This document shows, one piece after another, positions 8,749 through 21,280 of a stretch of 64,000 bases of DNA. Numbering within the stretch: position 1 is the stretch's first letter; the number at the start of each line of letters is the position of its first letter. Made by a program: the position numbers and the translations under genes. Origin of the DNA: an uncultured Gemmatimonadaceae bacterium (lineage in GTDB: Bacteria > Gemmatimonadota > Gemmatimonadetes > Gemmatimonadales > GWC2-71-9). The DNA lies in NCBI GenBank assembly GCA_964642475.1, contig CAZXRC010000004.1, positions 4,604 through 68,603 of the forward strand, given 5' to 3'. The notes beneath the pieces are model-generated. The model saw only the letters and a list, made by a program, of their open reading frames with translations, had not been told where the DNA came from and did not search any database.

Positions 8749-8871
8749 GGGGCGTCTCTCCAGGATTTCCTCCCTCTAGGTTTCGGATCATCCCGGTGAA
8801 AACTTGAGGCTTCGGCGCTACATTAGAAGTCCATGTAGTACAGCAGCTTACACCACGTCGCCAGGGTGCTC

Positions 8872-9375
8872 ATGGCCAGCAATCCCTCGTTCGATGTCTC
8901 GACCGGAGCCGACCTGCAGGAGGTCGACAACGCCGTCAACCAGGCGCTCAAGGAGATCGCCCAACGCTATGACTTCAAGGGCACCCACTGCGTCATCGAA
9001 TTCGACCGCACCAAGGCGGAAATCCGGCTGAGTGCCGACGACGATTTCCGGATGGATCAGCTGCTGGAGGTGCTTCGAACCAAGCTGGTCAAGCGCAACG
9101 TCCCGGTGAAGAATCTCAACATCGGCGATCCCGTCGCCGGGACTGGCACCACGGTCCGGCGCACCGTGGGGCTGACCCAGGGGATTCCGCAGGACGCCGC
9201 CAAGAAGATGATCAAGGCCATCAAGGACCAGGGATTCAAGAAGGTCCAGTCCACGATCCAGGGCGACGAAGTCCGGGTCACCGCGCCCTCCCGGGACGAG
9301 CTGCAGGCGGTCATCGCGTTCCTGCGCGGCCAGGACTTCGGGATCGAGCTCAAATTCGGCAACTATCGTGGCTGA
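8872..9375 (+). CDS. yajQ: YajQ family nucleotide-binding protein (UPF0234)
   Basis: MASNPSFDVS...DLQEVDNAVNQALKEIAQRYDFKG...IELKFGNYRG is typical of the YajQ family. Start moved from GTG 8866 to ATG 8872. Confidence 0.85.
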   Translation: MASNPSFDVSTGADLQEVDNAVNQALKEIAQRYDFKGTHCVIEFDRTKAEIRLSADDDFRMDQLLEVLRTKLVKRNVPVKNLNIGDPVAGTGTTVRRTVGLTQGIPQDAAKKMIKAIKDQGFKKVQSTIQGDEVRVTAPSRDELQAVIAFLRGQDFGIELKFGNYRG

Positions 9376-11684: not shown

Positions 11685-12976
11685 GGTGGCGGGCGGTCAG
11701 GCGGTCGGTGGGTCAGTCGCTGTGGCTGGTGCTTCTGCTCCTCCTCGTGCCGCCGAGTGTGGCGCAAACCGGGCCAATCACGCAGAAAGCCCAGACGGCT
11801 CCCGCTCCAGGTTCCGAGCTCACCATCTACGTAATGACGATGGGGGTCGGGGCCGAAGTGTGGGAGCGGTTCGGGCATAACGCCATCGTGGTCGAGGACC
11901 GCAGCCGCGGCACCGCCATCGCCTACAACTACGGGATGTTCAGCTTCCGGCAGGAGAATTTCGTCCTGCGGTTCATCCAGGGGCGCATGGACTACTGGAT
12001 GGCCGGGTACCCGGTGGCCGATGAAGTCCCCCGCTATCGAGGGATGCGCCGCTCGATCTGGCGCCAGGAGCTCAACCTCACCCCGACCGAACGGGCCGAG
12101 ATGCGCGATTTCCTGGAATGGAATGCGCGTGACGAGAACAAGTTCTACCGCTACGACTACTACCTCGACAACTGCTCCACCCGGGTGCGCGATGCCCTCG
12201 ACCGGATTCTGCATGGCGCGCTCAAGGCACAGTCCGCCGGCACCGCCTCCGGCAACTTTCGATTCCACACCCTCCGACTGGTAGCCGCCAATCCCTTCCT
12301 GTGGCTCGGTCTCGGCCTGATCGAAGGCCAGCCGGTCGACCGGCCCAACACCCGGTGGGAGGAGATGTTCCTGCCGCTCAAGCTGCGGGACTACCTCCGG
12401 GAGGTCACCGTCAAGGACTCCGCCGGCACCACCATGCCACTGGTTGTGCGCGAGGAGACGCTCTACCAGAGCACCGCGTTCCCCGTGCCCGAGGCACCGC
12501 CCAACTGGCAACTGCCGCTCCTGGGCATCGGGGCGCTGCTCGGCGCTCTCTTCTGGTGGGGAGGCACCCGAGGCAGGGCCGCGGCCCCGGCGCGGTACGC
12601 CCTCCTGGTGGGCGGGAGCTTCTGGGCCCTGCTGACGGGGGTGGCGGGGACGATCATGGTTGGGCTTTGGGCCTTCACCGACCATGCGGTCGCGGCCCGC
12701 AACGAGAACGTGCTGCAATGCTCCCTGGTGGCGCTGGTCCTCGCCGCGGCGCTGCCGTTTGCGGTGGGGGACCGCGATTGGGGAGGCCGCTGGGCCCGCG
12801 GGGCGGCGCTGTTGATCGGTGGGCTCTCGCTAGCCGGGGTGCTGCTCAAGCTGCTTCCCGGGTTCCACCAGGCGAACTGGCCGGTGCTGGCCGTGCTCGT
12901 CCCGGCGAATCTCGGGCTGGTGGCGGGGGTGCTGGCATGGACCAGGCCCAGCGAGCCCTCGCTCCGCGCGCGGTAG
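11681..12976 (+). CDS. DUF4105-type N-terminal domain membrane protein
   Basis: GTG 11681 overlaps the upstream stop (GTGA). Signal LWLVLLLLLVPPSVAQ; YVMTMGVGAEVWERFGHNAIVV; C-terminal multi-TM region. Confidence 0.7.
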   Translation: MRWRAVRRSVGQSLWLVLLLLLVPPSVAQTGPITQKAQTAPAPGSELTIYVMTMGVGAEVWERFGHNAIVVEDRSRGTAIAYNYGMFSFRQENFVLRFIQGRMDYWMAGYPVADEVPRYRGMRRSIWRQELNLTPTERAEMRDFLEWNARDENKFYRYDYYLDNCSTRVRDALDRILHGALKAQSAGTASGNFRFHTLRLVAANPFLWLGLGLIEGQPVDRPNTRWEEMFLPLKLRDYLREVTVKDSAGTTMPLVVREETLYQSTAFPVPEAPPNWQLPLLGIGALLGALFWWGGTRGRAAAPARYALLVGGSFWALLTGVAGTIMVGLWAFTDHAVAARNENVLQCSLVALVLAAALPFAVGDRDWGGRWARGAALLIGGLSLAGVLLKLLPGFHQANWPVLAVLVPANLGLVAGVLAWTRPSEPSLRAR

Positions 12977-13004: not shown

Positions 13005-14972
13005 CTACGGCCGATTCACCGCGATGCTGGCGCGCCGCCTCTCCTGGCGCTCCTCCCAGACCCGCGCCTCGATGAACACCCGGAACAGGTCGCCGTCGAG
13101 CTGACCCCGTTCCACCTCGTCCACCATGATGTCGAGCGCCCGTTCCGCCGGGAGCGCCCGCTTATAGGGGCGGTCCTGGGCGGTGAGGGCGTCGAAAATA
13201 TCGGCGATGGTCATCATCCGGGTCTGCAGCGGAATCTCCTCCGCCTTCACGTGCCGGGGATAGCCGGTGCCATCCAGCTTCTCATGGTGCCCCAGAGCGA
13301 TCTCCGGCACCCGGGCCAGCCCCCGGGTCCAGGGAATCCGCTCCAGGAAGGCGAAGGTGTGGTTGACGTGGCTCTCGATTTCGAGCCGTTCCCGCTCGTC
13401 CAGGCTGCCTTTGCGGATCGAGAGGTGTTTCTGCTCCCGGGCCGTGAGGAACGGCTGGGGTGCGCCGTCGATGTCGATGTACTGCCGCCCGGCGAACTCG
13501 CCCAGCTGGGCGAAATCGCCCTCCGCCAGCACGGTGGGCTCATTGGAGGCGAGGACCACCTTGAGAAAGCGGTCGGCCGTCTCGAGTGACTCCCGCTGGC
13601 GCTCGGACAGTTCCTTGAGGAATCGCTCGTAGCCCTCCCGGCCATGGGCCAGGAGGTAGTCGGCCCGGGCCCGTTCGAATTCCCACTCCGCGCTCCGGCG
13701 GACGAACGCATGACGCTGCCGGATGAGCGCGAGTTCCCCCTCGTACAGCTTTTTCGCCTTGACCAGCACCTGTTCCCGCACCCCGACCTTGCCGAAATCG
13801 TGGAGCAGCCCGGCGTAGCGGAGCTCCCGGACCTGCTCGGGACTGAAGCGGATCAGCTTGAACGGGCCCTCCTGGGCCCGGTCGAGCGCCTCGGCCAGGG
13901 CGACGGTCCGGAGCGCGACTCGCTCGGAATGCCCCGAGGTGGTCGGATCGCGCTGTTCGATGGCGTGGACCGCCGCCCGTACGAACCCCTCGAAGAGCCG
14001 CTCGATCGCTTCGTACAGCTGGCTGTTCTCGATCGAGACCGCCGCCTGGGAGGCCAGTGCGTTCACGATCTTCACCGTGTGGGCGCTGAAGGGCACGATC
14101 TGGCCTTCGGCGTCCTTCTCGCCCAGCCGGATCTCGGGGTCGCGCTTGCGGTTGATGAGCTGCAGCACGCCGATGACTTCCCCGTGGTGATTCTGCATCG
14201 GAATCACCAGCATGCTCTTGGTCCGGTACCCGTACCGCTCGTCAAACGACCGATTGAAGGAGTACTCCACCTCGGGCGGCAGGGTGTATACGTCCTCGAT
14301 GACCAGGGGGGAGCCCTCGGTGGCGACGTAGCCGGCCAGAGACGAGTGGTCGATGGGGACGCTGAATTCGACGAACGGGATGTCGGGGCGACTGTGGTTC
14401 TGGCTCAGCTTGACGCAGAGCCGCCGCTCGCCGCCGGGACTGGCCTCGGCGATGTAGAGGCTCCCGGCATCCGACTGGGTCACCCGGCGGGCCTGGGTGA
14501 GTATCAGGTCGAGCAGGGTCTCGAGGTTCTTCTCGGTTGTGAGCTGCACGCCGATATCGGCCAGCTCGGAGAGTTCGCTGAGCCGGGCGGCGCTCTCGTG
14601 CCGGGCCTGTCGGTGTTCCAGCGCGGAGGCCGACACCTGGAACGCCGCGCGTAGGGCCACCAGCAGCTGGCGCGGGCCGGCGGTGGAGGGGAGGAAGACG
14701 CTGAGCAGGTCGGCCGGCAGCTCCGCCGGGACATCCAGTTCGCCGGGGAGCCCCAGCGCCAGGATCGCCACCCCAGCGTCTTTGAGCCGGCCCAGGGTCG
14801 CGCGGCTCGCCCGGGTCCGGGCGGCGCCGTCGAGGAGGTAGGCGGAGGGACGGTGGTCGGGGCGGATCCGATCGGGGTGGTCCACCGCTTCGAGCTTCAC
14901 CTGCTCGGTCGCCAGCGCTTCGGCGACCGCCCCCGGATTCCACCCCGGCGCGTGATAGAGCAGGTACGTCAC
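13005..14972 (-). CDS. pseudo-receiver / GAF / HD-GYP domain protein (putative c-di-GMP phosphodiesterase)
   Basis: GTG 14972 overlaps the MlaD-like stop. REC-like N-terminus lacks the acidic pair and Lys. GAF region (SDAGSLYIAE...VIPMQNHHGEVIGVLQLINR). HD-GYP core (LLHDFGK ... HHEKLDGTGYP). The 1002-aa track ORF is a read-through artefact. Confidence 0.85.
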   Translation of the reverse strand: MTYLLYHAPGWNPGAVAEALATEQVKLEAVDHPDRIRPDHRPSAYLLDGAARTRASRATLGRLKDAGVAILALGLPGELDVPAELPADLLSVFLPSTAGPRQLLVALRAAFQVSASALEHRQARHESAARLSELSELADIGVQLTTEKNLETLLDLILTQARRVTQSDAGSLYIAEASPGGERRLCVKLSQNHSRPDIPFVEFSVPIDHSSLAGYVATEGSPLVIEDVYTLPPEVEYSFNRSFDERYGYRTKSMLVIPMQNHHGEVIGVLQLINRKRDPEIRLGEKDAEGQIVPFSAHTVKIVNALASQAAVSIENSQLYEAIERLFEGFVRAAVHAIEQRDPTTSGHSERVALRTVALAEALDRAQEGPFKLIRFSPEQVRELRYAGLLHDFGKVGVREQVLVKAKKLYEGELALIRQRHAFVRRSAEWEFERARADYLLAHGREGYERFLKELSERQRESLETADRFLKVVLASNEPTVLAEGDFAQLGEFAGRQYIDIDGAPQPFLTAREQKHLSIRKGSLDERERLEIESHVNHTFAFLERIPWTRGLARVPEIALGHHEKLDGTGYPRHVKAEEIPLQTRMMTIADIFDALTAQDRPYKRALPAERALDIMVDEVERGQLDGDLFRVFIEARVWEERQERRRASIAVNRP

Positions 14973-15907
14973 GGGACCGGTTGCTCCAGCACCGAGTCGC
15001 GGGAGATCTGGCGGACGCCGGTGAGCAGCCGGTGGGGTCGGCGGCTCACCTGATCGATGAAGTACTCGAACTTGGCGCTCACCACTCGCATCGTCTTGAG
15101 GGTTTGACGCACATCGGGCCCGACATCGGTGGTCAGCTGGTCGATGTTCCGGGTCAGGGTGTCGGCGTGGTTGATGAGCTGACGGGTGTCGGCCATCAGT
15201 ACCGTGAGCGAGTCGTGGATGGCCGCGAATCCGGTGTCGGCGTTGGCCAGGGTGGTTGTGGCGCGCGCCAGGAGCGGTTCCAGCCGGTCGAGGGCGGCCC
15301 GGGCACTGGCCAGGGTCTGGCGCACCTCCGGGGCGGTGCGCTGCACCTCCCGTTCGGCGGCTTCTGCGGTCCGGTTGAGAGTGCCGAGGAGGCTCCGGGT
15401 GTCGCGGAGGATGCCGGAGACCTGAGTCCGGAGGGTGTCGGCGACCTCCTTGACGACGTCGGTCCACCCCTGGGTCAGGGTGCCCCGGATGGTGTCGCCG
15501 GGCTGCAGCGCCGCCTGGATCTGATTGGGGGGTACCAGGAGCGAAATCGAGGCGCTCCCGATAAGCCCGGTCGAGATGATCTCCGCCCGGGTTCCGAGCG
15601 GCAGCCGGATGGGGAGGCCGTTGGCATAGCGCTCCCGGAGCCGGAGCCCCACCACGAAGAGCGGCGGGCCCATCCGCCCGCCGGTATCGGGCAGGGGAGA
15701 GATGTCCTTCACCTCGCCGATCGCCAGGCCCTGCAGGAGGACCGGCGTCTCCTGCTTGATGTCGGCGACGGTGGGGGTCACCATGTTGATGATGATTCGG
15801 CGCTCGGTCCAGCCGCGGGTGACCACCAGCGCGGCGAGGACTACGCCGATCGCCCCGAGGACCAGGGCGCCGACCAGGGCATCGGCGGTGCGGGGGCGGA
15901 GGCTCAT
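14969..15907 (-). CDS. MlaD/MCE family protein with long helical C-terminus
   Basis: N-terminal TM (LVGALVLGAIGVVLAALVV). MCE domain (VLLQGLAIGEVKDI). ATGA overlap with the upstream gene. Confidence 0.85.
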   Translation of the reverse strand: MSLRPRTADALVGALVLGAIGVVLAALVVTRGWTERRIIINMVTPTVADIKQETPVLLQGLAIGEVKDISPLPDTGGRMGPPLFVVGLRLRERYANGLPIRLPLGTRAEIISTGLIGSASISLLVPPNQIQAALQPGDTIRGTLTQGWTDVVKEVADTLRTQVSGILRDTRSLLGTLNRTAEAAEREVQRTAPEVRQTLASARAALDRLEPLLARATTTLANADTGFAAIHDSLTVLMADTRQLINHADTLTRNIDQLTTDVGPDVRQTLKTMRVVSAKFEYFIDQVSRRPHRLLTGVRQISRDSVLEQPVP

Positions 15908-16617
15908 GCCGGCTGCTCCACCTGGCCGCGGCGGACCCGGATCTGGCGGTCCACCCGTCGGCGGAGCAGCGCCGGCAGATCCTGCCCGGTGATGAACACG
16001 GTCCGCCGGCCACCCTCCGCCACCTCGCCGCCGCGCGCCAGCTCCAGCAGCTCGGCCGCCGCCTTCTCGGTGAGGCCGTCGAACGGCTCCTCGAGGATCA
16101 CCAGGTCGGGGTCGAACGCCAGGGCGCGTCCCAGGGCGGCGCGCCGCCGTTCCTCGGCGTTGGCCTGCGCCGGGCGGCGGTCGGCCACGCCGGTCAGCCG
16201 CAGCTGGGCCACGATCACGTCCACACGTCCCTCGATGTCCCTGGGGCGGAAGTTGCTTCCGAAACGAAGCGGGAGCCGGATGTTGTCGCGCAGGGAGAGA
16301 TTCTGCAACAGGCCGTCGCCGGCGGGAAGGTATCCGACCCTCCGGCGGAAGGCGAGTTGCCCCAACCGGTCGAGCGCGGCGACCTCGGTTCCCAACACCA
16401 GGACCCGGCCCTCGGGCACCCGATCGAGGCCCAGGGCGAGCCCGCCGAGGAGGTCGACGCCGCTGGTCTCGTCCCCGGTGGCGGCCACCGTCTGATGGGC
16501 CTGTACCTCGAGCGTGAGGAGACCCTCCCCGTCCACCGGCTGATGAGCCGGACCGCCGATGCTCGAACGTCGGATCCGGCGGAGCGCCACCCGCTCGAAG
16601 CTCAGCAGCGAGGTCAC
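15904..16617 (-). CDS. ABC ATPase-fold protein (MlaF-like) with degenerate catalytic motifs
   Basis: The ABC scaffold is recognisable (NLSLRDNIRLPL, RRRAALGRALAFDPDLVILEEPFDGL). Walker A reads TGDETSGVD (no Lys/Ser). The LSGGQ position reads ANAEE. Walker B Asp is replaced by Glu. The H-loop region reads FITGQD. Confidence 0.8.
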   Translation of the reverse strand: MTSLLSFERVALRRIRRSSIGGPAHQPVDGEGLLTLEVQAHQTVAATGDETSGVDLLGGLALGLDRVPEGRVLVLGTEVAALDRLGQLAFRRRVGYLPAGDGLLQNLSLRDNIRLPLRFGSNFRPRDIEGRVDVIVAQLRLTGVADRRPAQANAEERRRAALGRALAFDPDLVILEEPFDGLTEKAAAELLELARGGEVAEGGRRTVFITGQDLPALLRRRVDRQIRVRRGQVEQPA

Positions 16618-17399
16618 TGGGTCACCCCCACGATCAGCGCGGCGATCACGAAGATCAGGGCGATCGATCCGACCGTCCCGCGGATCACCGCCTGGGGGAT
16701 CTCGGTGGGGCCATGGCGGACCGAGAGGCCCTGGTAGCTGGGGATGATCCCGATGACGAGGCCGAAGAGGAGACCCTTCACCACGGTCAGGACCACGTCC
16801 TGGGTCGTGAGGTTCTGCAGGACGATGCCGAGGTAGCGGGCCCCGCTCATGCCGCCGTAGGCCACGGCGGCCAGATACCCGCCGACGATGGCGATCACGT
16901 CGAAGAGTATCATGAGGGTACCGACCGACAGGACACAGCCGAAGAGCCGGGGGAGGACCAGGTAGTGGTAGGGATCGATCCCCAGGCCCTCCAGGGCCCG
17001 GACTTCGCCCATGACCATGTTGGTGGCCAGCTCGGCGGTGATGGCGGTGCCGCTCCGGCTCACCACGGCGAGCGCGGTCAGCAGCGGCCCCAGCTCGCGC
17101 ACGATCACCACCACCATCAGCTCCCCGATGAACTCTGAGGCCCCGACCCGCGAGAGCTGGGTGAGGGTCGCGGAGATGGTCAGATAGCTGAGGACCCCGG
17201 AGAGCAGGACGATGAGGCCCACCGCCTGCAGGGCGGTGAAGCGGAGCTGGTTGAGGAGCACCCGGGCCGCGACCCGGCGCCCGGCGCCCGGGAGGGTGGG
17301 GATGGAGGCGACGGCCTCAAAGGCGAAGCGCGCCTGCGCGCCCACCAGGGCGAGCCAGCGCGCTGTCCCACGACCGATCGCGGTGAGGAGCCCGAGCAC
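16614..17399 (-). CDS. MlaE family ABC transporter permease
   Basis: 261 aa, multi-TM. Conserved stretch EFIGELMVVVIVRELGPLLTALAVVSRSGTAITAELATN is typical of MlaE/YrbE permeases. Confidence 0.85.
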   Translation of the reverse strand: MLGLLTAIGRGTARWLALVGAQARFAFEAVASIPTLPGAGRRVAARVLLNQLRFTALQAVGLIVLLSGVLSYLTISATLTQLSRVGASEFIGELMVVVIVRELGPLLTALAVVSRSGTAITAELATNMVMGEVRALEGLGIDPYHYLVLPRLFGCVLSVGTLMILFDVIAIVGGYLAAVAYGGMSGARYLGIVLQNLTTQDVVLTVVKGLLFGLVIGIIPSYQGLSVRHGPTEIPQAVIRGTVGSIALIFVIAALIVGVTQ

Positions 17400-17403
17400 G
17401 GAC

Positions 17404-18123
17404 TCAGGCTGGGTTGATCTTCTTCAGTCCCTCGCGGGCCTCGGTGTAATCCGGGAAGACCTTGAGCGCCCGACTGAAGTAGTCCGCGGCCTTGGCCTTG
17501 TCGCCCTGGTCCTGGTAGAGGAGGGCCCGGCTGTAGTACGAGAGCGCTTCGGTCGGGACGTTCCGGGCCTTGATCGCCCGGGCCTGCTCCTCGGTGAGGG
17601 GCGGCAGCTTGGTCTCCTTCATGAGGTTCTCGGCCACGGTCTGCATCAGCCGGGAAATGTCTTCCCGCTTCTCCAGCTTGGGATCGCCCCGCACCACCTT
17701 GAGGATCTCGCCGGTCTCGACCGAGACGAGGCGGGCATGAACCCGAAAGGTGCCATAGAGGTCGGTGAAGCCGCCGAGGACCATGTAGCGGGCGCCGACC
17801 AGCTTGCCGACCTTCGCCGCGGTCGCCGCATCCACGGCGCCGTCCTTGCCGAGCTTCTGCTCGTCGAGGATCTGCTGGATGGCCTCGCGGTCGACCAGGC
17901 GGGCGCCGGGGTTCTGGCCCAGCTCGTAAATGAGCATGCCGGCGAGCCCCTTCTCGAGCGCCTGGAAGTCCTCCTTGTCCCGGCCGTAGGAGCCGCCGTT
18001 GGTGAAGGGCATGACGGCAATGCCCGGCCGCGAGTCCTGGGCCCGGAGGGCGGGCGACAGAGACGCGAGGGCCACCACAGTCAGGGCACACAACACGCTA
18101 CGGCGTCGCATAGTCCACCTCAT
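17404..18123 (-). CDS. secreted CsgG/LpoB/FlgO-like domain protein with C-terminal TPR
   Basis: Signal peptide, then IAVMPFTNGG...LVDREAIQQILDEQKL...ARYMVLGGFTD, then TPR-like YYSRALLYQDQGDKAKAADYFSRALKVFPDYTEA. Family assignment is by pattern only. Confidence 0.6.
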   Translation of the reverse strand: MRWTMRRRSVLCALTVVALASLSPALRAQDSRPGIAVMPFTNGGSYGRDKEDFQALEKGLAGMLIYELGQNPGARLVDREAIQQILDEQKLGKDGAVDAATAAKVGKLVGARYMVLGGFTDLYGTFRVHARLVSVETGEILKVVRGDPKLEKREDISRLMQTVAENLMKETKLPPLTEEQARAIKARNVPTEALSYYSRALLYQDQGDKAKAADYFSRALKVFPDYTEAREGLKKINPA

Positions 18124-19037
18124 CAGAGAGTCAGCGCCATGCCTTCCATCGCGGCGTCCACCGCGAGCTCTGGCGCGCGCACGGCGGCGTTGCGTCGGGC
18201 GCCCGCGAGGAGCGCGTCGATCGCCGCGTCGTCGTGTTCCGGCTCATGGTGGAACAGCACCAGGCGCCGGCATCCCGCATCCCGGGCCAGGTCGATCGCC
18301 TGGTCGGGCGTGGAGTGTCCCCACCCGGACCGGCTCTCGATCATCGCCTCGGAGTACATCCCGTCATGTATTAACGTGTCCACCCCACTCAGGAATCTCA
18401 CCAGCGTGTGCCGCCAGTCGGGTGCCACGTCGTAGGTCCCCCCCTCACCCAGCTCGTTATCGGTCAGGTAGGCGAAGGTCCTCCCGCCCGAGACCGGGAC
18501 CAGCTTGTAGCCCAGCGTGGTTCCCGGGTGCCGCAGCCGGAACGCCTCGACCCGGAACCCATCGATTTCGAACGACCCCGAGCCCACCTCGGTGATGGTC
18601 AGGTCCGCGGCCAGCGCTTTGAGCGGCACCGGGAAGACCACCGGGTCCATCTGCCGATCGAGGATCCGCTCCAGGGACACCCCCGCCTGGGGAGCACCGT
18701 AGATCCGGACCGCGTTTCCCCGCGTGTTAAGCGGCTGGAAAAAGGGCAGGCCCTGGATGTGGTCCCAGTGGGTATGCGAGAGCAGGATATCGAGCTGCAT
18801 CGGGCCCTCGGTGGCCTTCGACAGCGCCCGTCCCAGCGGCCGGATGCCACTCCCGGCATCCAGGATGACCAGCTGGCCCGGCTGCCCCGAAACCGCCACA
18901 CAGGAGGTATTTCCGCCATAGCGCGCGGTATGTGCCCCAGGTGTCGGGATCGACCCTCTCGTTCCCCAGAACGTGACCGTGTAGCCCAACGGCTCCTCGG
19001 TGTAACTGTGTCTCTCAGTGTGCAAGGACCCTGCCAT
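18123..19037 (-). CDS. MBL-fold metallo-hydrolase (possible phosphodiesterase)
   Basis: HTHWDH metal-binding motif, LTDNE, GWGHST, FHHEP. The stop overlaps the downstream start by 1 nt (TGATG). Confidence 0.85.
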   Translation of the reverse strand: MAGSLHTERHSYTEEPLGYTVTFWGTRGSIPTPGAHTARYGGNTSCVAVSGQPGQLVILDAGSGIRPLGRALSKATEGPMQLDILLSHTHWDHIQGLPFFQPLNTRGNAVRIYGAPQAGVSLERILDRQMDPVVFPVPLKALAADLTITEVGSGSFEIDGFRVEAFRLRHPGTTLGYKLVPVSGGRTFAYLTDNELGEGGTYDVAPDWRHTLVRFLSGVDTLIHDGMYSEAMIESRSGWGHSTPDQAIDLARDAGCRRLVLFHHEPEHDDAAIDALLAGARRNAAVRAPELAVDAAMEGMALTL

Positions 19038-19078
19038 GGAGCACGCGGATGGGCGTCACGGCGGGGATGTGGGCATGG

Positions 19079-19756
19079 TCACGAACGGCCGGCGGCGCGC
19101 TCCAGCAGCGGGCGATTGGCGATCGAAATCTCCCGGCGGGTCACCTTGATCAGGCCGCGCTCGACAAAGTCTCGCATCGTGCGGGAAACGGTCTCCCGGC
19201 TGGAGCCGATCATCTGGGCGATGACGTGGTGGGTGATCTTCTTGGTGATCTCCTGGCCCCCCTCCTCGTCCGCCAGGCGGAGCAGCAGGTCGGCCACCCG
19301 ACCGTTGACGTCGAGGAGGACCAGGCTGCCGATCTTCTCGTCGGCGCGCCGCAGGCGGCGAGACAGCTCGCGCAGGAGCGCGATGGCGACCTCGGGGGAG
19401 TTCCTGAGTCGGGCCTGGAAGTCCTCGCGCCGAAGCACCAGTACCGCGGCATCGGTCATTGCGATCACGGTGGCGGAGCGGGGCTGATCGTCGATCAGGC
19501 TCATCTCGCCGAAGAAACTCCCTTCCGCGAGCACCGAGAGAATGACTTCCCGGCCGTCTTCGCCGATGAGGACCACTTTCACCTGTCCGGACGCGACCAG
19601 GTAGAGGGCGTCTCCCGGATCGTCCTCAAAGACGATCACACTCCCTTTGGGATAGCTTCGCTCCCGCACCAGCTCGGCAAAGGCAGTGATGTCACCTTCC
19701 CGCATGGTGGCGAACAGGGGAACCTTCTTCAGGACCTCAAGCGGGGTCAGGGACAC
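19079..19756 (-). CDS. Crp/Fnr family transcriptional regulator (cNMP-binding + HTH)
   Basis: cNMP-binding fold (FGEMSLIDDQPRSATV). C-terminal HTH (TVSRTMRDFVERGLI). GTG start at 19756. Confidence 0.9.
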   Translation of the reverse strand: MSLTPLEVLKKVPLFATMREGDITAFAELVRERSYPKGSVIVFEDDPGDALYLVASGQVKVVLIGEDGREVILSVLAEGSFFGEMSLIDDQPRSATVIAMTDAAVLVLRREDFQARLRNSPEVAIALLRELSRRLRRADEKIGSLVLLDVNGRVADLLLRLADEEGGQEITKKITHHVIAQMIGSSRETVSRTMRDFVERGLIKVTRREISIANRPLLERAAGRS

Positions 19757-19788
19757 AGGCCCTCGATGTGGTGGAAGTGACGGTAGAG

Positions 19789-19818
19789 ACTATACTTAGA
19801 CTGCCGGCTCGTTGTCAA
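19789..19818 (-). promoter_or_regulatory. near-consensus sigma-70 promoter TTGACA-N18-TATAGT upstream of the crp-like gene
   Basis: Minus strand reads TTGACAacgagccggcagtctaagTATAGT. The -10 lies about 33 nt upstream of the GTG start. Confidence 0.55.
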
Positions 19819-19894: not shown

Positions 19895-19924
19895 TTGAAC
19901 CCAACCGCGCATCCCGGCTATATT
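19895..19924 (+). promoter_or_regulatory. sigma-70-like promoter TTGAAC-N18-TATATT upstream of rpmE
   Basis: TTGAACccaaccgcgcatcccggcTATATT. Followed by a CCTCGG-CCAAAT-CCGAGG hairpin and GGAG before the GTG start. Confidence 0.5.
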
Positions 19925-19993: not shown

Positions 19994-20218
19994 GTGAAAG
20001 CGAATGCCCACCCGGTGTACCACAAGGTCATGGTGCAGTGCGCCTGCGGGAATCAGTTCGAGACCCGTTCCACCAGCGCCAATGTCCACGTGGAAATCTG
20101 CGCCAAGTGCCACCCCTACTTCACCGGCAAACAGCGGCTGATCGACACCCAGGGCCGCGTCGACCGTTTCCGGAAGAAGTACCAGGCCGAGAAGGCGCCG
20201 GCCTCGAGCCAGAGCTGA
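19994..20218 (+). CDS. rpmE: 50S ribosomal protein L31
   Basis: MKANAHPVYHKVMVQCACGNQFETRST...CAKCHPYFTGKQ, the Zn-ribbon (Cys-containing) form. GTG start. Confidence 0.95.
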   Translation: MKANAHPVYHKVMVQCACGNQFETRSTSANVHVEICAKCHPYFTGKQRLIDTQGRVDRFRKKYQAEKAPASSQS

Positions 20219-20221
20219 CCG

Positions 20222-21280
20222 ATGGAGGCCCGACTCCGCCAGGCGCTGGCCCGGGCGGAGGAGGTCGCCGCGGCGCTGGCCGACCCTTCGACCGCCGCCA
20301 ATCCCGCCAAACTCAGGGCCCTCGGTCGGGAGCACACCCGGCTCGCGCCGGTGGTGCGCGCCGCGGAGCGGCTCCAGAAACTCCAGGACGAACTCGCCCA
20401 GGCCAGGGAGATGGCGGCGGAGCCCGATCCCGAGCTCGCCGCCCTCGCCAGGGCTGACCTTGCCCGGCTCCCCGCTGAGATGGCGCCGCTCGAAACCGAG
20501 CTCCATGACCTGCTCCTCCCGCGCGACCCGCTCGACGACCGCGACGCGATCGTGGAAATCCGGGCCGGTACCGGAGGGGACGAGGCGGCCCTTTTCGCCG
20601 CCGATCTGCTCCGGATGTATCAACGGTTCGTGCAGCGGAAGAATCTCACCGTCGAGCCGATCTCGCTCAGCGACGGGGTGAGCGGCGGCCTCAAGGAAGC
20701 GATCTTCGCGGTGCGGGGCGACGATGCCTTCGGTCTGCTCCGGCGCGAGGCTGGAGTGCATCGGGTGCAGCGGGTCCCGGCCACCGAGTCGCAGGGGCGC
20801 ATCCACACCTCGGCCGCGACGGTGGCGGTGCTTCCCGAGGCGGAGGAAGTGGACGTTACCATCCAGCCGCAGGACCTCCGGATCGACGTCTTTCGCTCCG
20901 GGGGCCCGGGTGGCCAGAGCGTGAATACCACCGACAGTGCGGTGCGGATCACCCACCTGCCGACCGGCCTGGTGGTGTCGCAGCAGGACCAGAAGTCGCA
21001 GCTCCAGAACAAGCTCAAGGCCATGGAGGTGCTGCGGGCGCGGCTGCTCGACCGGATGATCGCGGAACAGGAGGCGGCCCGTTCCCGGGAGCGGCGCTCG
21101 ATGGTCGGGACCGGCGATCGCTCGGCCAAGATCCGGACCTACAACTATCCGCAGAGCCGGGTGACCGACCATCGCATCAACCTCTCGGTGCACAATCTCG
21201 CGGAAGTGCTGGATGGCAAGCTGGACGATTTCGTCGACGCCCTTCGCATGGCCAGCCGGCAGGAGCAGCTGGGTGCCTGA
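20222..21280 (+). CDS. prfA: peptide chain release factor 1
   Basis: PAT tripeptide (RVPATES) and GGQ motif ([24 protein letters not shown]). Confidence 0.95.

Follow-up and report, generated by a model that had tools for sequence, protein, structure and literature searches.

Work on MCE/Mla systems has treated them as ATP-driven lipid transporters responsible for outer-membrane maintenance, and work on networks built on cyclic di-GMP (c-di-GMP) has centred mostly on sensors that are soluble or simple membrane proteins. In Xanthomonas, the c-di-GMP circuit contains RpfG, a REC-HD-GYP protein in which a receiver domain controls the HD-GYP domain, together with Clp, a Crp-like factor that responds to c-di-GMP. 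In BceAB-BceS, FtsEX and similar membrane complexes of the ATP-binding cassette (ABC) type, information is carried across the membrane in a process that needs ATP hydrolysis. Here we describe a cluster of seven genes (g1 to g7) in a 64,000-nucleotide (nt) stretch of DNA, called the window below, from an uncultured Gemmatimonadaceae bacterium (contig CAZXRC010000004.1, positions 4,604 to 68,603 of the forward strand). Judged from sequence comparisons, the cluster is an operon conserved across Gemmatimonadota whose core is a predicted minimal MlaEFD-type MCE envelope complex. Its MlaF-like subunit has lost every catalytic motif, and its last gene encodes an HD-GYP phosphodiesterase that appears intact. 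It is possible, if short of probable, that this Mla-type complex has taken on a new role as the scaffold for signalling by the phosphodiesterase. Such a phylum-wide system would join the MCE/Mla and c-di-GMP fields.

The described systems closest to the core of the operon are MlaFEDB (Escherichia coli, Acinetobacter baumannii) and minimal MlaEFD (Veillonella parvula; PMC10665443). In passages of that study, minimal MlaEFD with an elongated MlaD is proposed to be the ancestral and widespread form. As far as they are described there, these systems share with the present locus an MlaE permease, an MlaF-like protein and an anchored MCE protein, encoded in the same order by overlapping genes, and the minimal type also has in common with it an elongated MlaD and an operon that contains no MlaA, MlaB or MlaC. 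The present locus differs in three respects. The loss of all motifs in g5 is fixed across the family; the C-terminal extension of g6, about 170 residues, is too short for an outer-membrane beta-barrel of the kind those passages describe for the Veillonella MlaD; and the operon adds a CsgG-N/TPR protein, a Crp regulator, an MBL hydrolase and an HD-GYP enzyme. The components are all from known families, while the combination and the fixed ATPase loss are new. Full-text searches of the literature for MlaD, MlaE or MCE proteins with HD-GYP or c-di-GMP, for MlaF with a degenerate Walker A motif and for HD-GYP in Gemmatimonadetes did not find this arrangement. An earlier analysis of this DNA made from the letters alone (the sequence-only reading) had likewise not been aware of any characterisation of the architecture. 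Term searches of PMC10665443 found no mention of Gemmatimonadota, found 'Walker' once, and found no inactive MlaF in the passages of that paper so reached.

The promoter and the genes of the module, in the direction of transcription, are as follows.

19789-19818, minus strand: sigma-70-type promoter TTGACA-N18-TATAGT, 5' of g1; 11/12 positions match
19079-19756, minus strand: g1, Crp/Fnr-family regulator, 225 amino acids (aa); cNMP_binding PF00027, 101 bits; HTH_Crp_2 PF13545, 72 bits
18123-19037, minus strand: g2, MBL-fold phosphodiesterase-like protein, cytoplasmic, 304 aa; Lactamase_B_2 PF12706, 80 bits; motif HTHWDH
17404-18123, minus strand: g3, secreted protein, CsgG/LpoB-like in its N-terminal domain and with a TPR at the C-terminus, 239 aa
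16614-17399, minus strand: g4, MlaE-type permease, 261 aa; PF02405, 181 bits over profile positions 2-209 of 212
15904-16617, minus strand: g5, MlaF-like ABC nucleotide-binding-domain protein, 237 aa; ABC_tran PF00005, only 38 bits
14969-15907, minus strand: g6, MlaD/MCE protein, 312 aa; PF02470, 33 bits (cut-off 25.1); TIGR00996, 49 bits
13005-14972, minus strand: g7, pseudo-receiver + GAF + HD-GYP protein, 655 aa; GAF, 62 bits; HD_5, 111 bits

The sequence-only reading had described seven same-strand open reading frames (ORFs), tightly joined, behind a near-consensus promoter. The coordinates of the seven minus-strand ORFs, which span 13005-19756, the junction sequences and the promoter are all as it claimed, and its seven domain assignments were recovered with Pfam and NCBIfam profile hidden Markov models, apart from the receiver of g7, which is recognized by its predicted fold only and has no Pfam match. 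GC content at the third codon position is 0.84-0.94 in the called frames of g1 to g7. A gap of 41 nt separates g1 from g2; g2 and g3 overlap by 1 nt (TGATG, 18123), g3 and g4 are 4 nt apart, and the g4/g5, g5/g6 and g6/g7 junctions are 4-nt overlaps (GTGA, ATGA and GTGA, respectively). In the ORF listing, g7 lies within a 1002-aa ORF (13005-16013), and orthologues support the GTG at 14972 as its start. Neither a minus-strand promoter nor an intrinsic terminator was called inside the cluster (13005-19756). Promoter-like sites in the 7.6 kb number two, compared with 0.5 expected. Of 66 related loci, 63 have a TTGAC-N16-19-TAnnnT site 5' of g1, nearly always at an equal distance from its start.

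In order to follow the module in other genomes, a profile-guided scan with the g5 profile was made over one genome per GTDB species. It gave 133 loci, all from Gemmatimonadota, and the best 80 of the 133 were retrieved; conservation was counted over 85 loci. The module is fully spanned in 61 of the 85 loci and its seven genes are collinear in all 61, with no violation of gene order in any of the 85. The seven genes recur, in unchanged order, in a second clade whose g5 is about 50% identical. The proposal that the genes for MlaE, the dead MlaF, MlaD and the HD-GYP protein stay together is thus upheld: they are adjacent and in order in 61/61 spanning loci from two clades.

The most unusual member of the module is g5. 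Alignment to solved ABC ATPases gave the following replacements.

Walker A: G-S-G-S-G-K-S-T (GxxGxGKS/T) replaced by GDETSGVD
Q-loop: Gln replaced by Ala
Signature: LSGGQ replaced by ANAEE
Walker B: DEP replaced by EEP (Asp to Glu)
H-loop: His replaced by Gly

All five catalytic motifs are replaced, in agreement with the earlier description of this protein as degenerate, and g5 is predicted to be dead as an ATPase at every one of them. The degenerate motifs are themselves conserved. Across 14 homologues, the most distant of them 63% identical, the core of the altered Walker A motif (G48, D49 and S52-D55) does not vary, the motifs ANAE[DE] and GDExSGVD are invariant or nearly so among g5 homologues, and related degenerate Walker A variants persist in representatives of the second clade at about 50% identity. 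When 1.84 billion representative proteins were searched with a profile, only 17 matched below 1e-30, which marks a small, closed family, and the near-full-length relatives that were inspected are all degenerate (for example GDExSGV or GGENSGV). Other segments are very highly conserved, namely GYLPAGDGLLQNL in the Q-loop/coupling region, which is the best-conserved part of the protein, NIRLPLRFGS, RRRAALGRALAFDP and LEEPFDGLT. In real transporters the equivalents of these segments contact the coupling helix of the permease and the partner subunit. The median identity of g5 over the 85 loci is 68%, the same as that of MlaE. Because the degenerate motifs are conserved and g5 is as conserved as MlaE, we judge g5 to be a pseudo-enzyme under selection for something other than catalysis.

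Two other accounts of g5 were rejected. Pseudogene decay does not agree with an ORF that is intact in 85 loci, a third-position GC of 0.89 and degenerate motifs that are themselves conserved. A heterodimer with an active MlaF fails on logic: since g5 has neither a Walker A motif nor a signature, neither composite ATP site would be canonical. Automatic annotation names proteins of the g5 type 'MlaF ATPase' or 'ATP-binding cassette domain-containing protein', and the loss of function is thereby hidden.

The remodelled pocket of g5 (GDExSGVD, ANAE[DE]) is invariant or nearly so and is not drifting, and three other proteins of the operon are related to cyclic nucleotides. Both observations would suit a g5 that acts as a second-messenger receptor, with its pocket binding c-di-GMP or a cyclic nucleoside monophosphate (cNMP), the MCE complex gated by the messenger and the HD-GYP enzyme tuning the local pool of ligand. 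We consider such a role highly improbable. The former P-loop has three acidic residues and no Lys, which is unfavourable for phosphates; a known c-di-GMP-binding motif was not identified in g5; and an ABC nucleotide-binding domain (NBD) of such a kind has no supporting precedent.

The second protein on which the signalling-scaffold reading depends is g7. It has no hydrophobic segment and is therefore cytoplasmic. Its motif HHEKLDGTGYP occupies residues 562-572, and its best solved relatives are V-cGAP3 (5z7c) and PmGH, a c-di-GMP phosphodiesterase from Persephonella marina (4mcw) that ranks first both by sequence (E = 3e-34) and by fold (Foldseek TM-score 0.75 on the target). Residues H348, H391-D392, H535, H562-H563 and D591/D594 align with the conserved His and Asp residues of both enzymes. 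On proper alignment, then, the HD metal residues expected by the sequence-only reading are present, and together with G570-Y571-P572 they are invariant in 31 family sequences. The HD-GYP domain looks catalytically competent by these comparisons. Thr344, which is Thr in 30 of the 31 sequences, aligns with the Glu of the PmGH 'DPET' motif, a position at which V-cGAP3 has Tyr. This Glu is presumably Glu185, the ligand of the third iron, and its replacement by Thr344 suggests a two-metal site, with which activity would be compatible. Over its second half, the domain most closely resembles V-cGAP3, a 3'3'-cGAMP phosphodiesterase; the substrate could be c-di-GMP or cGAMP.

Two parts of g7 have no counterpart in PmGH, which has the same GAF + HD-GYP core with the H, HD, HH, D and GYP residues present.

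14673-14972, minus strand: residues 1-100 of g7, receiver-fold domain without a phosphorylation pocket (AlphaFold2 and Foldseek)
13428-13760, minus strand: residues ~405-515 of g7, helical insert of ~110 residues in the HD-GYP domain (split Pfam match)

The g7 protein thus adds to the PmGH plan an N-terminal pseudo-receiver and an insert with a duplicated segment, and differs from it further in the Thr for Glu replacement. No Pfam match, including Response_reg, was obtained for the N-terminus even at E = 10. The AlphaFold2 model of residues 1-135 has a pLDDT of 92.9, and its leading Foldseek matches are almost all receiver domains, among them StyR, CpxR, DctD, Spo0A and NtrC1 (E down to 1e-5, TM-scores 0.55-0.69). 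Receiver positions were assigned by means of the secondary structure of the model. In the pocket, the acidic pair has given way to H7, D48 is found in 27 of 31 sequences, G74 stands at the T/S site and no conserved Lys follows beta-5. According to the model, the N-terminus is a pseudo-receiver whose function could not depend on phosphorylation.

The GAF domain of g7 is closest to cNMP-binding GAF domains, those of CyaB2, PDE5, PDE2 and cAMP-bound Lcd1. Lcd1 is activated by cAMP. Like g7, this Leptospira GAF-GGDEF protein has a cNMP-type GAF domain in front of a c-di-GMP enzyme (5w10, GAF with cAMP; TM-score 0.76 on the target against the g7 GAF). Unlike g7, it is a cyclase rather than a phosphodiesterase and has no membrane-complex partner. 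Long connecting helices in the g7 model, at residues 100-146 and 297-341, are of a type common in dimeric signalling proteins.

The insert splits the Pfam HD/HD_5 matches of g7 into residues 346-431 and 515-628. It sits between two copies of a K-x-G-K-L...H segment, both of which are matched by alignments to PDB entries, and is mostly helical, with model helices at 411-443 and 448-476. The His that follows the insert (His535) is invariant, and the one that precedes it (His421) is found in 27 of 31 sequences. A protein of 1041 aa with a match to g7 (P0234; locus L083, 4252-7377) was considered as a fusion and rejected, being a paralogue in an unrelated context. It aligns with 82% of g7 at 48% identity and stands in a non-Mla context. 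P0234 probably shares the insert; if it does, the insert marks a subfamily of HD-GYP proteins and not an association with Mla.

From gene order and translational coupling we infer that g1 to g7 form one physical or functional unit. In the signalling-scaffold reading, a dimer of dead MlaF subunits would no longer power transport and would dock the pseudo-receiver of a dimeric phosphodiesterase, much as the STAS protein MlaB docks on MlaF (PMC7367683). The state of the periplasmic MCE/MlaE assembly, reflecting lipid or envelope status, would be relayed inward and would set the rate at which c-di-GMP, or a related cyclic dinucleotide, is hydrolysed, with the GAF domain adding a small-molecule input. 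The Crp-family protein g1, possibly with the MBL-fold protein g2, would place expression under cyclic-nucleotide control. We favour an outside-in direction of signalling because the apparently intact catalytic domain is C-terminal to sensor-type domains. A more specific version, in which MCE/MlaE would be a trans-envelope receptor and an ATP-free pseudo-NBD dimer would relay envelope state to docked g7, to be read out as c-di-GMP hydrolysis, is in our view doubtful. Such a receptor may belong to a wider, undescribed class of non-catalytic MlaF paralogues. If this version is true, MCE proteins would for the first time form the basis of a signal transducer, and a homodimeric ABC nucleotide-binding domain would for the first time be seen to persist purely as a signalling adaptor. 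A phylum-wide system joining Mla to the HD-GYP enzyme would further offer a testable case of envelope-lipid status feeding second-messenger control, and g5 would be a clear instance of an ABC ATPase turned pseudo-enzyme.

The arrangement can be set beside the signalling systems mentioned above. With RpfG/Clp it shares a receiver-type domain, an HD-GYP domain and a Crp-family regulator. In contrast to RpfG/Clp, the receiver here would be independent of phosphorylation, no kinase is encoded and the presumed partner is an ABC/MCE complex. With BceAB-BceS, FtsEX and MlaB-MlaF, the likenesses proposed here are the use of an ABC-type membrane complex to carry information across the membrane and the docking of a small alpha/beta domain on a nucleotide-binding subunit. 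The present complex differs from BceAB-BceS and FtsEX in having a dead NBD, and its output would be second-messenger hydrolysis instead of a kinase or a periplasmic hydrolase.

Many of the next-best MlaF-like representatives also have an eroded Walker A motif, an eroded signature or both (P0267, P0277, P0289, P0339, P0358 and others). The eroded proteins adjoin MlaE and usually MlaD in the four contexts that were recovered.

L087: MlaE, degenerate MlaF and MlaD; a divergent GAF-GAF-GGDEF cyclase gene directly upstream
L090: MlaE, degenerate MlaF, MlaD, TPR and LemA
L092: MlaE and degenerate MlaF only
L102: MlaE-F-MlaD set; nucleotide cyclase three genes away

The non-catalytic MlaF paralogue appears to be a wider phenomenon, one that we did not find described in the literature searched. 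The cyclase gene beside the L087 trio is a separate hint in favour of the signalling-scaffold reading. A metagenome scan for relatives of L087, made with P0267, gave only generic ABC ATPases of 21-28% identity.

The permease and the MCE protein of the module belong to the MlaE and MlaD families. Against TIGR00056, g4 scores 136 bits, under the subfamily cut-off of 212. In the g6 protein, a single MCE domain lies between an N-terminal membrane anchor and a long C-terminal extension, and the strongest hydrophobic segment is at residues 11-29; E. coli MlaD is its sole solved relative, and it evolves fastest in the module (median identity 40%). We read the extension as probably helical because of weak Pfam matches to DUF948 on g6 and to Helical_needle on the MlaD of the unrelated locus L102. 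MlaA, MlaB (STAS) and MlaC are encoded neither in the operon nor within 10 kb in L001 and L084-L086, and in the passages of PMC10665443 on minimal MlaEFD systems such absence is normal.

Since g4 and g6 are bona fide members of the MlaE and MlaD families, the complex may still be a lipid transporter that works independently of ATP, passively or otherwise energised. The dead MlaF would then be a structural plug, and g7 would either be merely co-expressed or act as an inside-out gate that responds to cNMP or c-di-GMP. The best-conserved Q-loop/coupling region of g5 fits continued docking on MlaE, degenerate MlaF-like proteins occur in Mla-like operons that have no signalling genes, and minimal MlaEFD with a long MlaD is described, in passages of PMC10665443, as an ancestral and widespread means of lipid trafficking. 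We nevertheless place this explanation on the unlikely side. A catalytically intact HD-GYP domain behind sensor domains fits an output enzyme better than a receptor, and the conserved mlaD/g7 overlap of 4 nt (73/74 loci) is unexplained if g7 is a co-regulated bystander. To our knowledge, moreover, an active ATPase is at work in every characterised MlaFEDB/Mce system that has a permease of the MlaE/YrbE type.

The surroundings of the module are relevant to a different explanation. Its boundaries in the window are formed by the following features.

about 11780-12976, plus strand: Lnb_N gene, convergent, downstream boundary of the cluster
19895-19924, plus strand: divergent promoter-like site facing rpmE-prfA; 9/12 positions match
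19994-20218, plus strand: rpmE, divergent, upstream boundary
20222-21280, plus strand: prfA, divergent, upstream boundary

Downstream, Lnb_N is retained in 42 of 68 loci and missing from 26, and the loci of clade 2 have other genes in this place (hydantoinase, NTP_transf/APH, or PEMT/XdhC). Upstream, the divergent and unrelated rpmE-prfA pair is retained in 57 of 60 loci, so that an rpmE-prfA-prmC block unrelated to the module is equally conserved beside it. The conservation of this block would suit an operon of convenience, in which two or three unrelated functions (a Crp + MBL cyclic-nucleotide pair, an Mla-like envelope system and a GAF-HD-GYP enzyme) are merely co-transcribed and are held together by phylogenetic inertia. 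The restriction of all loci to Gemmatimonadota, the median separation of 74 nt between g1 and g2, and the GAF-HD-GYP paralogue with 48% identity in a non-Mla context are in line with it. The module is intact, however, where the downstream flank has been replaced (the 26 of 68 loci without Lnb_N), and stop/start overlaps are conserved across g3 to g7: at g6/g7 the 4-nt overlap is preserved in 73 of 74 loci and at g4/g5 in 54 of 77, and in 94% of loci no more than 10 nt separate g3 from g4. In addition, the Mla part is unable to function as an ATP-driven transporter of the canonical kind, and in a second, distant system with a degenerate MlaF (L087) a c-di-GMP enzyme again adjoins it. We conclude that an operon of convenience is distinctly unlikely. 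A mobile or defence element was also considered and rejected, the chromosomal site beside rpmE-prfA being fixed in 57/60 loci.

The broader proposal of the sequence-only reading, that an envelope complex is wired to cyclic-nucleotide signalling, stands in part. Those of its proposed checks that were run all favoured it, and the conserved linkage, the dead ATPase and the intact HD-GYP domain support it, whereas several observations weigh against it and against our signalling-scaffold reading alike. No module-bearing locus was found outside Gemmatimonadota, either in the g5-profile genome scan or among the 1.84 billion representatives, and with all loci in one phylum the linkage may be partly phylogenetic inertia. 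Because prfA is kept in 57/60 loci, almost as well as the module itself, adjacency alone is weaker evidence than it looks and partly reflects slow genome rearrangement. Crp and MBL are less tightly coupled than the other genes, and no Crp-type palindrome or operator is evident 5' of g1 in ~60 aligned upstream regions. No fusion proteins that join g7 with Mla-like parts were found. In L090 and L092 the degenerate MlaF stands in an Mla-like operon without a c-di-GMP enzyme, so ATPase loss does not itself imply signalling, and outside the Gemmatimonadota module the link to a c-di-GMP enzyme recurs once, on a single contig (L087). PqiAB and LetAB, too, are MCE systems that have no ABC ATPase and still move lipids, so transport could continue here as well. 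In favour of the signalling-scaffold reading, the inspected gene tables of L001, L002 and L084-L086, which cover these neighbourhoods, contain no gene for a substitute ABC ATPase within 10 kb.

The best NCBIfam match of g1 is CRP, at 123 bits, under the equivalog cut-off of 266. Orthologues of g1 are 64-99% identical in 74 loci. The protein carries GEMSL...RSATV and has no Fnr-type N-terminal Cys cluster; the segment resembles what we take to be the cAMP contacts E72, R82 and S83 of E. coli CRP. As an alternative to a cAMP ligand, g1 may bind cGMP or may be a c-di-GMP-binding Crp-like protein of the Clp type.

In g2, the HxHxDH metal motif (HTHWDH) is invariant across six orthologues. Sequence and profile searches of the PDB gave solved relatives of the RNase Z/ElaC type as the nearest. 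The scores against NCBIfam models are below their cut-offs (85 against 293 bits for RNase Z, 39 against 400 bits for cyc_nuc_deg_phdiest). A weak match to Apyc1 (PF23023) was seen on two distant g2 orthologues only, and an Apyc1 identity was not sustained, as the PDB searches gave RNase Z/ElaC relatives alone. A role of g2 as a cNMP phosphodiesterase would at present be a weak lead. The g3 protein has a signal peptide, with its N-terminal hydrophobicity maximum at residue 10, and is made up of the N-terminal half of a CsgG/LpoB fold and one TPR unit (PF03783, 64 bits over profile positions 6-100 of 210; TPR_1, 32 bits; LpoB weak).

The leader of the operon contains a conserved motif, ACTTCCAC, which follows the -10 box and precedes the ribosome-binding site of g1 (window ~19770-19785, minus strand). 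The motif occurs in most clade-1 loci, in the same place in L001-L058, and may be an operator or a leader element; a leader RNA or riboswitch has no Rfam match in this region. On one long ENA contig (L088, 10529-12518), the g7 orthologue and several of its neighbours are fragmented, and tblastn aligns g7 in two pieces. These fragments are most likely assembly frameshifts and not gene loss.

Four genes downstream of the module, the window encodes a further protein that might be connected with c-di-GMP.

8866-9375, plus strand: YajQ/DUF520 gene; PF04461, 201 bits

Proteins of the YajQ family in Xanthomonas reportedly bind c-di-GMP. The gene is syntenic in most clade-1 loci and could be part of the same signalling neighbourhood as the module.

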